DNA of 64,000 nt. Source: Octopus vulgaris (taxonomy: Eukaryota). The stretch lies in the NCBI GenBank assembly GCA_951406725.2, contig OX597821.1, positions 65,596,001 to 65,660,000 of the forward strand, given 5' to 3'. A program made the position numbers and the translations under genes. Positions 5,801 through 62,569 of the stretch are shown here, piece after piece (the first letter of the stretch is position 1; every line of letters starts with the position of its first letter). A model generated the notes under the pieces. That model saw only the letters and a program-made list of their open reading frames with translations, did not search any database and was not told where the DNA came from.

Positions 5801-6251
5801 TTTATTTGCTGCCGATAAATTTGGCGCGAGTGCGACGATTTGAAAATTTTAGGTCAGATATTGCCGAGGTAGCAAGAGGAATGCCTCGTGAAAAATATCT
5901 GTTCCGACTTGGCTATTTCTTACTGATGAGTCTAAGGGCCTATGGTGGATTGGCTTGATTTAATTTAATCAGGTTAGTTTACCATTAAACGGTAGATGAA
6001 ACGGTGCATCGTCTAAGAAATTACAGGGTAAAAGTTTTTCAATTTTCTCCTGGTTTACGGAATTAATGTTATTTTGCGGTTAAAGCTTTTGGCTGTTATT
6101 TCTAGTGGGTGAATGGCCTATTATGGCCGTTCCTTGATTGTGAAGTTGAACGTAAAAATGGTTTATGACTATTTAATTTTTTTCCTACTAGGCCGCTGGT
6201 GGCAAAAGAATTCTACAAAATTTTTTTTGCCACCCTATATTGATTAATTAT
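5801..6251 (+). mobile_element. 484-bp HHR element (retrozyme-like), copy 1, about 0.93 unit, in (TA)n
   Basis: About 99% identical to the copies at 60121-61177 (3 substitutions and 1 poly-T indel seen); flanked by (TA)n. Confidence 0.85.
5915..6021 (+). ncRNA. Type I hammerhead ribozyme with extended stem II
   Basis: ATTTCTTA-CTGATGA-GTCTA..[19-bp hairpin]..TAGAT-GAA-ACGGTGCATCGT-C^TAAGAAAT; 8-bp stem I, GUC triplet. Confidence 0.9.
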
Positions 6252-6268
6252 ATATATATATATATATA

Positions 6269-7803
6269 CTAGCAGAATTGCGCGGCGTTGCTCGGGGCTG
6301 AATTGCTTGAAAGTACTGTTAATGATTGCACTGAATTATGATGATTATTCAGGCAAATATTGATATAAGTTTACGGTGGGAGATAAGGACTTAACGATCA
6401 AACGTGTGCCATTGCATTGTTTTGGGGGAACCAAATATCTGATGAGCATTATAGGGGCACCAACTTTAAGTTTGAGAAAGTGTGGTGGTAGTCCGGGGTG
6501 CTCAAAGGAATTGAGTACCTCTATTGGATAGTTGATGACGTCCTCTGGGTCAGGAGTTGTATCGATAGACTGATATACATAGATTTCCCCAGGAATGAGT
6601 TTTAGCATTTCATCATTAATATGGTGAACAGTTTTATTCCTCGGGGCCAGAATAGCCCTTTGGCCAATCCAATCCATATTCTGATAATTAGCTTGTAGAT
6701 CTGGGAACACTGCATCTCTGAGATCAGAAGGCGTCTTAACAAAGGTACAAATGGAATCGATGGCAATATTACCAGTTTCATCCCCTGGTATTTTGCCTTC
6801 GCAAAGTGCAAGGAGGGTGTGAGGAAATTTTTAAGAAAGGAATTTGTTTACATACATGTGTGAAATGGCAAATGTTTGTGCAGTTGTCCGAAATGGAACC
6901 AGGGTAAATGTGTGGAACTGATGTATAATAATGAAGGCCTTCTTGTTGTGAATATTAATTTGATTAATATGAACTAAAAACCAGTGGTGTAGCAAAAAGG
7001 ATGACCAGTCTGACTGGCTCATCCCTGTCACACACTCACACACACGCACACACACACACACACACACACGCACCCTTACACACACACACGCACACACACT
7101 CACACACACACACTCACACACACGCACACACACACACACATTAGCTTACAATTTTATTTATATATTTGCGTGTCTATGTGTGTAAAGAGGAAGTGGGAGT
7201 AATATGCAGAGTAAAGGCTTTGAAGTGAAAAGGTAGTTTTCTCGAATTTTTTCTGAAATGGGGGTGAAATTGAAAGAACTTTTGTATGTTATGACCGAAT
7301 GGAAGTACTTTGAAAAATCATAGGTAAACTCTAATTGAAGAAATTGTATGAGGAGTAAATCGTTATGTATTTATTTGTTTCTGTTTGCTGTGTTTTTTTT
7401 TAGTAGTGGTTTAAGGTACACTTGCAAAGAGAAAGAATGTGAAATTATGGTGATAGCATGAGTGATCCGTTTTATATAAATACTTTCACTTTAATCGTTG
7501 CACACTTGCAAAGAGAAAGGAGGAGAAATTAGGGTGATAGCGTGAGTGAAGCAGATCGCTCCGTTTTTGTGTGTGTGTGTGTGTGCTGTAGCCCACACTA
7601 AGAAAAGCACTTCACTTACACACCACAATGTGAGTTTTCTCGAAATTTTGCTTAATTGGGGTTGAAATTTTAAAAACTGGACCTGGCACGACCTGATGTA
7701 TTCTACCCTTAAAAATGCTAGGTAAATTGTAATTGAAGAAATCCTATATTGTAGATTTCTATAAGAGATAAAGGGAGGCAGATAAAATCTGCCTTTTGTA
7801 ATA

Positions 7804-7867: not shown

Positions 7868-8295
7868 CTTTCAGATCAGAGCTGCGGCCATGCTGATGCA
7901 TCCCCGTTTTGTACTACACTGTTATTACTAAGAGTCTCCTCTAATATGTGGCACTTGGTGAAGAATGGAGTTTCATATAGCTACCCTCATTTGCACCTCT
8001 TGCTGTGAGGTAGGCTCATCTGGGACTCTCGACAGGAAAAGGTCCAGCTTTGATTTAAAAACCGCTACATCTTCTTTGTACAAGTTCCTCAGACTCTTTG
8101 GGAGAATATTAAAAAGCTGTGGGCCCTTGAAACCCAGGCTGTTGCAGTAGCTGGTCCTGAAGCGTGATGGCATTGCTGGGATCTTTGACACTATGCAGTG
8201 TCGTCTCGTTCTGGCATTGGTGTAGCTTTCAATGCCAAAATTTTGCACAATTCCTTCCAGGATCTTCCAGATATATATTACTGCATACATCTCAG
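7868..8295 (-). mobile_element. 3' end of a CR1-type LINE
   Basis: YAVIYIWKILEG..CNSLGFKGPQLFNILPKSLRNL..FKSKLDLFLSRVPDEP; homologous to 15190-15610 and 24560-24990. Confidence 0.8.
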
Positions 8296-8603
8296 TAATA
8301 TATATCCCACAAGGGATTGGTCGGCCCGATGCTATAGTAGAAGACACTTGGCCCAGTGCCACGCTGTGGGACTGAATCCGGAACAATGTGGTTGGGAACC
8401 AAGCTACATACCACACAGATACTCCTGCGCCTATAAATATGTGCATACACACACACACACACATATGTATGTATATGTGTATACATATATACATACATAC
8501 ATACATGCATACATATATGAATACACACAAACACAAACACATGGACTTGCACTCATATAAACACAATTATCAATTTCGTTTGAGTCACAAATATGCCTTG
8601 CCG

Positions 8604-20423: not shown

Positions 20424-21440
20424 GTCATTGTTCAGTTTTATTTCAAGGTTTCTTGCAAAGAGCCGGTTTCTAACCAAGATCCAAGGTTCCTTCATTTGAA
20501 TTTCAACATCAACAACAGGGTGTTTTTGTATGTATGTTTGTATGTATGTATGTATGTATGTATGTATGTATGTATGTATGTATGTATGTATGTATGTATG
20601 TATGTATGTATGCATGCATGTATGTATGTATGCATGTATGTATGTATGTATGCATGCATGTATGTATGTATGTATGTATTTATGTATGTATATGTGCAGA
20701 TTTGTATGTTTTACATTATGTGTGTATTCTAGACATGTTCATATATATTTAAATGATAAACTTCTGGAAAGTTTTACAGATTTTTAGAGTTCCAGTGATG
20801 GATTGGATTGGTAGTCTTCGAATCAGCTTTCTCCTTTCTAGTTTTGAGAAGCCTAATTTCTCAAGATTGGCTGTGTGTTACATATCTCATGGCCTCAGTA
20901 ATTACAAGTATAAACATGAGCTTGTAATCTGGATAATTAACTGCAGATTTCTCAACAGTTCAGCATAGGTGTTCTCTTTTTCATTGATTTTCAGCTTTAT
21001 GTTCACATCCGCTGGGGAGCCAATTTCCACAACTGTGCACAGTTTCTCTTCTCTATCCCAAATCATTATATCAGGTCCGTTGTGCTTACAGTTCATTGAA
21101 GGCTTCATTGGGACATTCCACCAATACTCCTTTGTATTATGAATGGCTATGGCTTCTACCATACTGTGGGTTCTCATTTCTTTGTCCTCAGGATTATCTT
21201 TCCGACGGATTTCACTATAGAGTGTCCTAGATACAACATCATATCTCATCGGTAGACAATACCGTGATGAAATTTTCGGACGACTGCTTATGATGTGGGT
21301 GATATCTTCGGTGTTAACTCCACAAACTCTGCATCGGTTGTCAAATTTTTCTGCTTTTCCTGCATTTTTGTCCCTTTTGTTCATCAGGTTCTTGTTTCAT
21401 ATTTCCTGTCCCTGGATTGCAAACGCATACTCTTCAAAGT
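20424..21440 (-). mobile_element. R4/Dong-type LINE 3' part with (CATA)n-containing 3' UTR
   Basis: CRVCG..EDITHIISS.P..(R)YDVV..KHNGPDIMIWD..VVEI..EKENTY..KICKTFQKFII* (stop about 20749); the UTR block recurs at 40222-40330 and 40423-40525. Confidence 0.8.
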
Positions 21441-60049: not shown

Positions 60050-60118
<69 letters not shown>

Positions 60119-60120
60119 AT

Positions 60121-60653
60121 AATCAATATAGGGTGGCAAAAAAATTTTGTAGAATTCTTTTGCCACCAGCGGCCTAGTAGGAAAAAATTAAATAGTCATA
60201 AACCATTTTTACGTTCAACATCACAATCAAGGAACGGCCATAATAGGCCATTCACCCACTAGAAATAACAGCCAAAAGCTTTAACCGCAAAATAACATTA
60301 ATACCGTAAACCAGGAGAAAATTGAAAAACTTTTACCCTGTAATTTCTTAGACGATGCACCGTTTCATCTACCGTTTAATGGTAAACTAACCTGATTAAA
60401 TTAAATCAAGCCAATCCACCATAGGCCCTTAGACTCATCAGTAAGAAATAGCCAAATCGGAACAGATATTTTTCACGAGGCATTCCTCTTGCTACCTCGG
60501 CAATATCTGACCTAAAATTTTCAAATCGTCGCACTCGCGCCAAATTTATCGGCAGCAAATAAACCACCGATTCCGTTACGGAACTAACCAGAAAATTCAT
60601 AATTAATCAATATAGGGTGGCAAAAAAATTTTGTAGAATTCTTTTGCCACCAG
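60121..60653 (-). mobile_element. 484-bp HHR element copy 2 (1.1 units, terminally redundant)
   Basis: AATCAATATAGGGTGGC.. occurs at 60121 and again at 60605 (period 484). Confidence 0.9.
60343..60449 (-). ncRNA. Type I hammerhead ribozyme with extended stem II
   Basis: Reverse complement of 60947-61053. Confidence 0.9.
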
Positions 60654-61177
60654 TGGGTGAATGGCCTATTATGGCCGTTCCTTGATTGTGATGTTGAACG
60701 TAAAAATGGTTTATGACTATTTAATTTTTTCCTACTAGGCCGCTGGTGGCAAAAGAATTCTACAAAATTTTTTTGCCACCCTATATTGATTAATTATGAA
60801 TTTTCTGGTTAGTTCCGTAACGGAATCGGTGGTTTATTTGCTGCCGATAAATTTGGCGCGAGTGCGACGATTTGAAAATTTTAGGTCAGATATTGCCGAG
60901 GTAGCAAGAGGAATGCCTCGTGAAAAATATCTGTTCCGATTTGGCTATTTCTTACTGATGAGTCTAAGGGCCTATGGTGGATTGGCTTGATTTAATTTAA
61001 TCAGGTTAGTTTACCATTAAACGGTAGATGAAACGGTGCATCGTCTAAGAAATTACAGGGTAAAAGTTTTTCAATTTTCTCCTGGTTTACGGTATTAATG
61101 TTATTTTGCGGTTAAAGCTTTTGGCTGTTATTTCTAGTGGGTGAATGGCCTATTATGGCCGTTCCTTGATTGTGATG
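60652..61177 (+). mobile_element. 484-bp HHR element copy 3 (1.09 units, different permutation)
   Basis: AGTGGGTGAATGGCC.. occurs at 60652 and again at 61136 (period 484). Confidence 0.9.
60947..61053 (+). ncRNA. Type I hammerhead ribozyme with extended stem II
   Basis: Stem I 60947-54/61046-53; CTGATGA 60955-61; stem II base 60962-66/61025-29; GAAA 61030-33; predicted cleavage after GTC at 61045. Confidence 0.9.
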
Positions 61178-61252
61178 ATATATATATATATATATATAAA
61201 TGGCGGTGCCCCAGCATGGCCACAGCTCATGAGCTGAAACTAGAATCAATCA

Positions 61253-61570: not shown

Positions 61571-62311
61571 ATGTCCGCTCACACACACACACCTGCCACC
61601 ATGCCTTAGGTAGTGACCTAAAAAAGTAATTTGTAATTAACTGAGTAATCACTAATTCTAATTACTTGAGATTATAACCTTAAGGAGAAAACAACATCTC
61701 ATTAGCGTTAATGAAAATTATTTACAGAAAGGGTAAGGGAGGGAAATCTCGATATTTCAATCAAAGCAATTATTAGAAATATACAAAGATGTGTATGATT
61801 CTAATATTTTGATTTTGTTACCATGGGAACCATTCCGGATATGTTTTGATTGTATCGGTCTTCAACAGTTAAGCTTAGATCACCCAATAGCTACCAAGAT
61901 CTTATTTTTATTTTCTTTTTTATTTATATTTTTAAAATTCTATTTCATCCTTTATGTTTTATCTTTTTTTTACTTGATTCAGTCATTGGACTATGACCAT
62001 GCTGCAGCACCGCCTTGAACTGTTTTCTGGCGGAATAAGTCGAGTCCAGTATTTCTTTTTAAAACTTAGCTAGTGTTAGATGGTTGTAAACTGACCAACA
62101 CCGGTTGTCAAACATTGGCGGGAGACGTATCGGCCGCACGTATCCAATGTATGTGTTTCCCATGTTCGATGACTTTCAAGTGTTTTAATCCCTGGTGTAA
62201 TGAGGGAGTTGTCCCCAGCACGCTGTCTAGCGGCGAACAGGCTAACAAGGAACGCACATACATTGAGTACGTGCGTTCGATAATATTTACAACACTACCA
62301 CTGCTTTTAAC

Positions 62312-62362
62312 TCCTACTGATGAGGCTACGGATGTACCCGAAACTGACCCGTCAATATAGGG
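62312..62362 (+). ncRNA. Type I hammerhead ribozyme, slightly decayed
   Basis: TCCTA-CTGATGA-GGCTAC(GGAT)GTACCC-GAA-ACTGAC(CC)GTCAAT-A^TAGGG; one mismatch each in stems II and III. Confidence 0.75.
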
Positions 62363-62569
62363 AATTCTCGATCGGTGCTTTTGGCCGATTATAGCCCCTA
62401 TCAGTACATATGTATGCAATAATGTACTTTAATTACAGCACTGGAGCATTTAACTCTTATTTCTAGCAATGTAGGTGTTCTAACACTCTAGTCACATTTA
62501 GTGACAATTACAGATTTCCTTTTTGATAAAACATTGCACACAGCTCTCCTCTCTTTCTCTCCCTCTACC

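Follow-up and report, generated by a model that had tools for sequence, protein, structure and literature searches.

Metazoan non-LTR retrozymes are described, in the available portions of two accounts (Cervera and de la Peña 2020, PMC7229834; Li, Clavereau and Pollet 2026, 10.64898/2026.07.22.740005), as non-coding, low-GC (<45%) tandem repeats that carry one type I hammerhead per unit, fold strongly on one strand and co-occur with Penelope-like elements. The copying of animal retrozymes is described as unresolved by Li et al. (2026), and one of nine Xenopus retrozymes cleaved in the same work. Penelope-like elements, for their part, are recognized by tandem copies, by an arm that is inverted and truncated, by a tail on only one side and by insertion into microsatellites (Craig et al. 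2021, PMC8557442). Frangieh et al. (2024, PMC11167929) traced the tail to two internal sites of initiation, and Craig et al. (2021) name the way in which tandem and inverted insertions are made as a task still ahead. Hammerhead cleavage was dispensable for insertion of the anole element in vitro (Frangieh et al. 2024). As to the ribozyme itself, a scheme in which hammerheads cut in multimers and are switched off in monomer circles was put forward by Cervera and de la Peña (2014, PMC4209133), and hammerheads often have a pseudoknot that joins stem I to stem II (Perreault et al. 2011, PMC3088659).

We analysed a window of 64,000 nt of Octopus vulgaris DNA (contig OX597821.1, forward-strand positions 65,596,001 to 65,660,000). 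Judged from its sequence, the repeat found there is of the non-LTR retrozyme type, a 484-bp tandem unit with one hammerhead each. It shares the traits given above for the metazoan elements: the unit has 37% GC, no open reading frame of at least 120 aa in the window's ORF list overlaps 60116-61177, and the circular fold of the unit reaches −141.8 kcal/mol on the plus strand (z −4.9, against z −2.0 on the minus strand). Its length exceeds the 170-400 nt given by Cervera and de la Peña (2020) and lies inside the 51-972 bp range of Li et al. (2026). Unlike the metazoan elements as presented in the available parts of those papers, the octopus hammerhead carries a 58-nt insert in stem II and lacks the G10.1-C11.1 pair, and the same parts hold no description of inverted two-armed insertions with two fixed ends. 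The features of the window are as follows.

5801..6251, plus strand: a separate insertion into (TA)n, one-armed and 5′-truncated, belonging to the window subfamily; it ends 3′ at unit position 146 and has its hammerhead core at 5923
60054..60115, no strand: (TA)n target microsatellite, left (from sequence)
60116..60656, minus strand: inverted arm; 3′ end at unit position ~146, 5′ end at ~89-92 (repeat mapping)
60343..60449, minus strand: identical hammerhead copy in the inverted arm, core starting at 60441
60652..61177, plus strand: forward arm, consisting of one 484-nt unit (60652-61135) and 42 nt of a following one, with its 3′ end at position 41-42
60745..60780, plus strand: predicted hairpin; the second fixed 3′ end (position 146 = 60797) follows ~17 nt downstream
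60943..60946, plus strand: predicted 5′ strand of the pseudoknot, GGCU, immediately abutting stem I (covariation)
60947..60954, plus strand: 5′ strand of stem I, pairing with 61046-61053; three of eight pairs change on both sides
60955..60961, plus strand: catalytic core CUGAUGA, of which position 7 alone varies across the family
60962..60966, plus strand: 5′ strand of proximal stem II, pairing with 61025-61029, G·U-closed (alignment and fold)
60967..60973, plus strand: 5′ side of the internal loop, containing the pseudoknot partner GGCC (60969-60972)
60974..61017, plus strand: distal stem II hairpin, 19 bp with six G·U; A61008 is the remaining UAG site
61018..61024, plus strand: 3′ side of the internal loop (predicted fold)
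61030..61045, plus strand: core GAAA (61030-33), palindromic stem III (61033-61044) and GUC, with the predicted cut after 61045
61046..61053, plus strand: 3′ strand of stem I (alignment and fold)
61143..61164, plus strand: predicted hairpin; the first fixed 3′ end (position 41-42) follows ~12 nt downstream
61178..61198, no strand: (TA)n target microsatellite, right (from sequence)

The two arms of the main insertion form a 438-nt perfect inverted repeat. Since each arm has a single hammerhead, this copy is likely a dead end; with one unit per arm it falls below the two-unit rule by which Li et al. (2026) call copies active, and a read-through transcript would bury the hammerhead within a 438-bp perfect duplex. 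The family is far larger than this locus. Pattern searches of 2.8 Gb of genome (227 contigs) counted 424 exact-core units of the window subfamily, 1,060 GUA-type units, 299 units of a distant subfamily and at least 2,811 units with the hairpin 24-mer, with no hits for reversed-pattern controls. The family is also present in contigs from sequencing runs labelled organisms B and C. The unit is covered by contigs in four of four runs from four studies, whose RNA status is a guess, and some pieces are free of differences; such contigs cannot reveal strand, ends or circles, and their read ends contained no pile-up or joints bearing on cleavage.

An earlier, sequence-only reading of the window had proposed a hammerhead with a long, strand-specific stem II, and its layout was confirmed. 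Positions 60974-60992 pair with 60999-61017 through 13 Watson-Crick and six G·U pairs and no mismatch, around an apical loop at 60993-60998. Stem I has 8 bp (60947-54/61046-53), the 5-bp proximal stem II is closed by G·U (60962/61029), the internal loop measures 7x7 nt, and the stem III palindrome at 61033-61044 is followed by the end of GUC at 61045. The fold is indeed strand-specific: for 60940-61060 the plus strand gives −36.4 kcal/mol with z −3.9 and the minus strand −17.7 kcal/mol with z −1.5, and the hairpin alone gives −21.7 versus −5.3 with RNA parameters and −3.3 versus −2.3 with DNA parameters. CUGANGA, GAAA and NUH are all present within three helices, helix I being open, and the typical, non-obligatory G10.1-C11.1 pair is G·U in this copy. 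The motif is a real and conserved type I hammerhead, whose self-cleavage is predicted. Rfam gave no match on the window at gathering score, for which the long stem II insert is the likely cause.

What can be read directly from the letters is the motif, the arrays, the inverted arms, the two fixed 3′ ends, the covariation and a recurrent A-to-G change at UAG that takes in whole arrays. Beyond that, we consider it probable that the element is a double-hammerhead retrozyme that passes through a monomer circle and is copied into (TA)n in a Penelope-like manner, with an RNA-paired stem II docked by a pseudoknot and some G·U pairs derived from ADAR. The putative cycle would begin with transcription of a tandem array, in which two palindromic stems III would pair and both cores would cut after GUC, a lone copy mispairing its core and staying off. 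The monomer would be ligated into a circle. A Penelope-like enzyme would nick both (TA)n strands and prime twice on the same RNA, at positions ~41 and ~146; reverse transcription would roll for up to 7 laps, and the two cDNAs would be joined 5′ to 5′. ADAR would deaminate the UAG adenosines of the hairpin, inosine would be copied as G, and only pairing-preserving changes would persist in source lineages. A bolder version is advanced tentatively, as a serious possibility that we would not quite favour: the family may be a genomic record of the full cycle, from a dimer-gated, pseudoknotted hammerhead that yields a monomer circle, through ADAR editing of the long stem II arm, to a Penelope-like enzyme that primes on this one circle at two fixed sites, one for each target strand, and so copies the edits into every repeat; recurrent editing would then shift the hairpin's Watson-Crick pairs towards G·U.

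Because young copies hardly differ from one another, subfamilies of ~72-100% identity were gathered for comparison. The resulting tree has 42 rows (3 of 45 candidate loci yielded none), the covariation alignment holds 26 variants hand-picked from 54 distinct strings, and ambiguous branches and the root branch are left out of the parsimony counts. On the tree, 10 of the 11 core positions are unchanged; the four core changes all fall at position 7, the N of CUGANGA, where U, A, C and G all occur in the family. The triplet is GUC in the window copy and GUA or GUC in relatives. Covariation among diverged copies, to which the earlier reading had looked, is present in stem I and proximal stem II, with three pairs each altered on both sides (26 variants). 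The first pair of stem II (10.1-11.1) is A-U in 8 of these variants, G·U in 1 and unpaired in 17, and is never G-C.

The hairpin tells a similar story of constraint. Across the 26 variants 96.4% of its cells are paired; ten of its pairs vary on a single side and one on both. None of 500 shuffles matches the paired percentage or the covariation score, a comparison inflated by kinship among rows. Its arms change at about the background rate (0.87 versus 0.95 changes per site). By parsimony, however, 20 of 25 unambiguous changes end in Watson-Crick or G·U and only 2 in A·C, where the spectrum outside the hairpin gives an expectation of 42-44% for pairing kept (p ~2e-4). Private hairpin changes in young copies (119 units) end paired in 0 of 4 cases (Fisher p 0.005 versus 20/25). 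Because the subfamily changes keep pairing in such excess, we infer constraint at the RNA level, as the sequence-only reading had suspected. That reading had inferred selection at the RNA level; the constraint holds, but part of the G·U excess is likely mutational, from A-to-I editing of the RNA template, and not due to selection alone. Its description of six G·U pairs without a mismatch is right for the window copy and does not extend to the family, where the state is subfamily-specific: G·U pairs number from 1 to 6 per row (42 rows), and half of the aligned variants (13 of 26) have no pairing at hairpin pair 5. Hairpin changes run in both directions between Watson-Crick and G·U. The 6-nt, AU-rich apical loop (60993-60998) has no change on the tree while the arms vary at the background rate, and is possibly a protein site.

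The idea that the internal loop supplies a tertiary contact linking stem I with stem II could be made specific, as a predicted, covarying 4-bp pseudoknot of GGCU (60943-46) with GGCC (60969-72). Relatives offer GGCC(G)/(C)GGCC, (A)GGUU/AACC(U) and (A)GGUC/GACC(U). Pair 3 appears as C-G or U-A and pair 4 as U·G, C-G or U-A, the latter with five changes on the tree. Since stem I varies from 5 to 8 bp, the test relied on an anchored script, in which the anchor demanded G-R-Y-Y upstream and one of 42 rows was dropped; so aligned, 51 of 52 cells are paired in 13 distinct variants, with a single broken cell, compared with a mean of 47.8 in shuffles, of which 7 in 10,000 were as high as 51. A second alignment left the pseudoknot strands out of register. 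State changes keep pairing in 7 of 8 cases (p 0.016), including one double change only, on the deepest branch, and in most rows the 5′ strand begins at the end of stem I despite the varying length of that stem. On this comparative evidence, the internal loop likely supplies the contact through these four base pairs.

RNAalifold offered a different pseudoknot, GCCU (60970-73) with GGGU (61058-61), which shows one-sided changes only; we rejected it because the GGG run downstream of stem I is explained by a local hairpin with a C-G/U-A change. The closest described architecture, in the available text of de la Peña et al. (2021, PMC7936874), is that of the atypical type III hammerheads in HDV-like RNAs from toad and termite, which also have a 5-bp stem, an internal loop and an extra hairpin, and likewise send a 4-nt GC-rich loop strand to another helix (GCCR with YGGC). 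The octopus fold would be its mirror, with the long helix on II, type I topology and the 5′ shoulder of helix I as partner strand, and its extra hairpin spans 44 nt as against ~20 nt. No description of such a mirrored type I pseudoknot in retrozymes was found, and the supplements of Cervera and de la Peña (2014, 2020) and Li et al. (2026) may show one.

Where the G·U pairs come from is the point on which our preferred reading has its strongest competitor. Of the eight A-to-G changes that the tree places in the hairpin, six are at UAG (opportunity 15%, p 3e-4), compared with 0 of 30 outside the hairpin. ADAR prefers a 5′ U and a 3′ G (Bass 2024), and from this bias the remaining UAG site, A61008, was expected to change often. 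It does: genome pattern counts place A61008G in 63 units at 24 loci, on about seven subfamily backgrounds as judged by eye, and in 15 of 17 multi-unit loci it fills all units. Control changes that also keep pairing reach 6 units at one locus, 5 units at one locus (counted with a shifted 24-mer) and 12 units at nine loci. One A61008G locus, L228, also shows A-to-G at two positions of the core GAAA, and does so in each of its three units. Some hairpin G·U pairs are thus likely ADAR edits fixed by reverse transcription, as the sequence context suggests; selection for pairing is also at work, as is seen from the reversions and from C-to-U changes.

It is possible, if rather unlikely, that the element is the same in every other respect and that its G·U pairs arose only from plain transitions, made in DNA or during reverse transcription and then sieved by selection to retain pairing, with no part for ADAR. 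This would account for reversions from G·U to Watson-Crick being about as many as the forward changes, for a UAG signal carried by only three sites on the tree, for two A61008G groups (5-6 loci) that resemble small subfamilies and for the absence of A61008G from the guessed-RNA contigs. It sits less well with the recurrence of A61008G on otherwise-A backgrounds (the window type, L043, L115 and L116), where whole arrays are filled, with the far lower frequency of other pairing-neutral transitions and with the additional core changes of L228. Outside the hairpin there is no global deamination bias (A>G 33 versus T>C 39, C>T 40 versus G>A 39). A60974G in the guessed-RNA contigs was rejected as a sign of editing, being also a genomic subfamily variant. 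At one locus (L225), G occupies position 61008 in six of seven units and A in the 5′-most lap of one arm; L222 is the sole other exception to complete filling. Editing was raised as a possibility by Cervera and de la Peña (2020), and our literature search on retrozymes with ADAR or editing found no relevant paper.

In our preferred reading the hammerhead would cut in tandem RNA. The sequence-only reading had held that the near-palindromic stem III allows monomer or dimer folding; the two folds are not equals, the dimer being the form predicted to be active. For the lone window copy, stem III has a predicted probability of ~0.01 and the core mispairs with the palindrome, the free fold lying at −36.4 kcal/mol and the active fold at −30.5; monomer stem III probabilities stay at 0.00-0.15 in all 27 variants. 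In a pseudoknot-free model of the natural tandem dimer, the double hammerhead (−197.3 kcal/mol) lies 2.4 kcal/mol above the free minimum (−199.7), and two monomer folds (−183.8) lie 15.9 above it. Helix III is thus predicted to be weak in the monomer and to have 12 bp in the dimer, which would be the active form. Predicted dimer activity together with a monomer misfold matches the scheme of Cervera and de la Peña (2014), whose dimer-active hammerheads likewise have a weak palindromic helix III and form a stable duplex between two copies. The octopus palindrome is longer, 12 nt as against 1-2 bp plus 2-4 nt in the described parts of that set, and unlike those it is also predicted to trap the monomer core. 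Short-stem-II relatives sharing the palindrome gave three matches in the genome.

The insertions themselves inform on the template. Insertion structure was mapped at 41 loci, namely 38 taken from the first 100 among the 424 units, two others and the window insertion; 24 of them are two-armed, and arms run up to 7 laps. In 22 of these 24, the two 3′ ends fall one at 38-48 and one at 137-147. No insertion has both ends in one class, and two have a non-standard end. Nearly all 3′ ends have TA-rich flanks, and the two fixed ends are common to distant subfamilies that are ~72% identical. Sixteen variants, each private to one of the 41 loci and some adjoining indels, fill every covering repeat at 14 loci, many in both arms. 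For a variant to occupy every lap in both arms, it has to go through a monomer stage, and the simplest reading of these patterns is therefore a circular template. Seven variants in six loci are carried by some repeats only, as a multimer template would give. No arm 5′ end out of 66 lies at the predicted cut, with four in the next 10 nt (1.5 expected), and the mapped arms span 130 intact cut sites, which fits a circle and also an RNA that does not cut. One distant-subfamily copy (L109) starts at the predicted cut site. A cluster of 16 of the 66 arm 5′ ends (4.8 expected) lies at unit positions 72-106 (60723-60757), on the 5′ side of a strong hairpin, possibly a stall or template-switch site.

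A non-cutting hammerhead, with linear multimers retrotransposed or arrays homogenised at the DNA level and the fold kept solely for protein binding, seems to us quite improbable. Besides the lack of arm starts at the cut, the non-canonical 10.1-11.1 pair, the predicted monomer misfold and the few variants only partly shared among repeats speak for it, as does the anole element, which needs no cleavage in vitro (PMC11167929). Such an RNA would hardly be expected to keep a core that is invariant save at position 7 across subfamilies only ~72% identical, or to retain a palindromic stem III and a predicted tertiary-contact pseudoknot; the locus-private variants that fill both inverted arms, moreover, need a monomer bottleneck. 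Weaker still is the notion that the hairpin is a decaying DNA inverted repeat with G·U by chance, to which we give practically no credence: the distant subfamily's nearly perfect hairpin (18 Watson-Crick pairs and one G·U) means that it may have begun as an inverted duplication, but decay should yield A·C as often as G·U, the stability with DNA parameters is negligible, and the covariation, in which subfamily changes retain pairing far above expectation and young private changes never do, refutes it.

Returning to our preferred reading, the insertions resemble those of Penelope-like elements (PMC8557442, PMC11167929, as far as the available text goes) in their partial tandems, inverted 5′-truncated arm and microsatellite targets, and in a one-end tail that reflects two starts of reverse transcription. 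The octopus repeat differs in having no ORF and in a tail of ~105 nt as opposed to 30-40 nt; its two starts, unlike those of the Penelope-like elements described there, are used one per arm (22/24). Neither the unit sequence nor a homologous pseudo-LTR was found in Penelope-like loci, as surveyed in 56 regions near GIY-YIG matches, out of 6,136 candidates. Two apparent links to a partner were set aside, a strong match at L075 that belongs to an unrelated neighbouring insertion and a 31-nt match at L171, whose end is a TA run and which we regard as chance. The same genome contains a young element of 781 aa with RT and GIY-YIG domains, lying in (TA)n and having two 3′ ends ~40 nt apart; its family (L103-L108, e.g. 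G000:C16:33681500-33687500) has an upstream frame of ~479 aa. At the 3′ end of this family we noticed a hammerhead-like motif with UUGAUAA replacing CUGAUGA. No literature was found that joins Penelope, octopus, retrotransposon and circular RNA.

The class of element is a known one; what is likely new is the long pseudoknot-docked stem II, the rule of one start per arm and the probable fixed edits. Thousands of young copies make the rules testable in the in vitro Penelope system that already exists, namely two starts 105 nt apart, one per strand, and rolling on a circle. The ribozyme adds a predicted mirror-image pseudoknotted hammerhead whose long arm looks removable, and the whole-array A-to-G changes, if editing is their true source, would mean that host RNA editing steers the sequence of a mobile RNA.

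Other features nearby deserve mention. A second, unrelated type I hammerhead, with a short stem II and a G-C closing pair, lies at 62311-62366 (plus strand) in the window; its repeat family is older (at least 43 matches, ~77-85% identity among copies), and the window copy is mismatched in stem III. The same genome holds other hammerhead candidates with a long stem II (L081:455, plus; L080:45, plus; L076:2572, minus), and since these are sequence-distinct, long arms recur in several families. Adjoining the one-armed copy at 5801..6251 is a 161-aa frame (6345-6830, minus strand) that resembles, and may be, a Helitron/PIF1 helicase fragment, and frames at 20902-21396 and 7973-8566 (both minus strand) resemble C-terminal pieces of non-LTR retrotransposon proteins.
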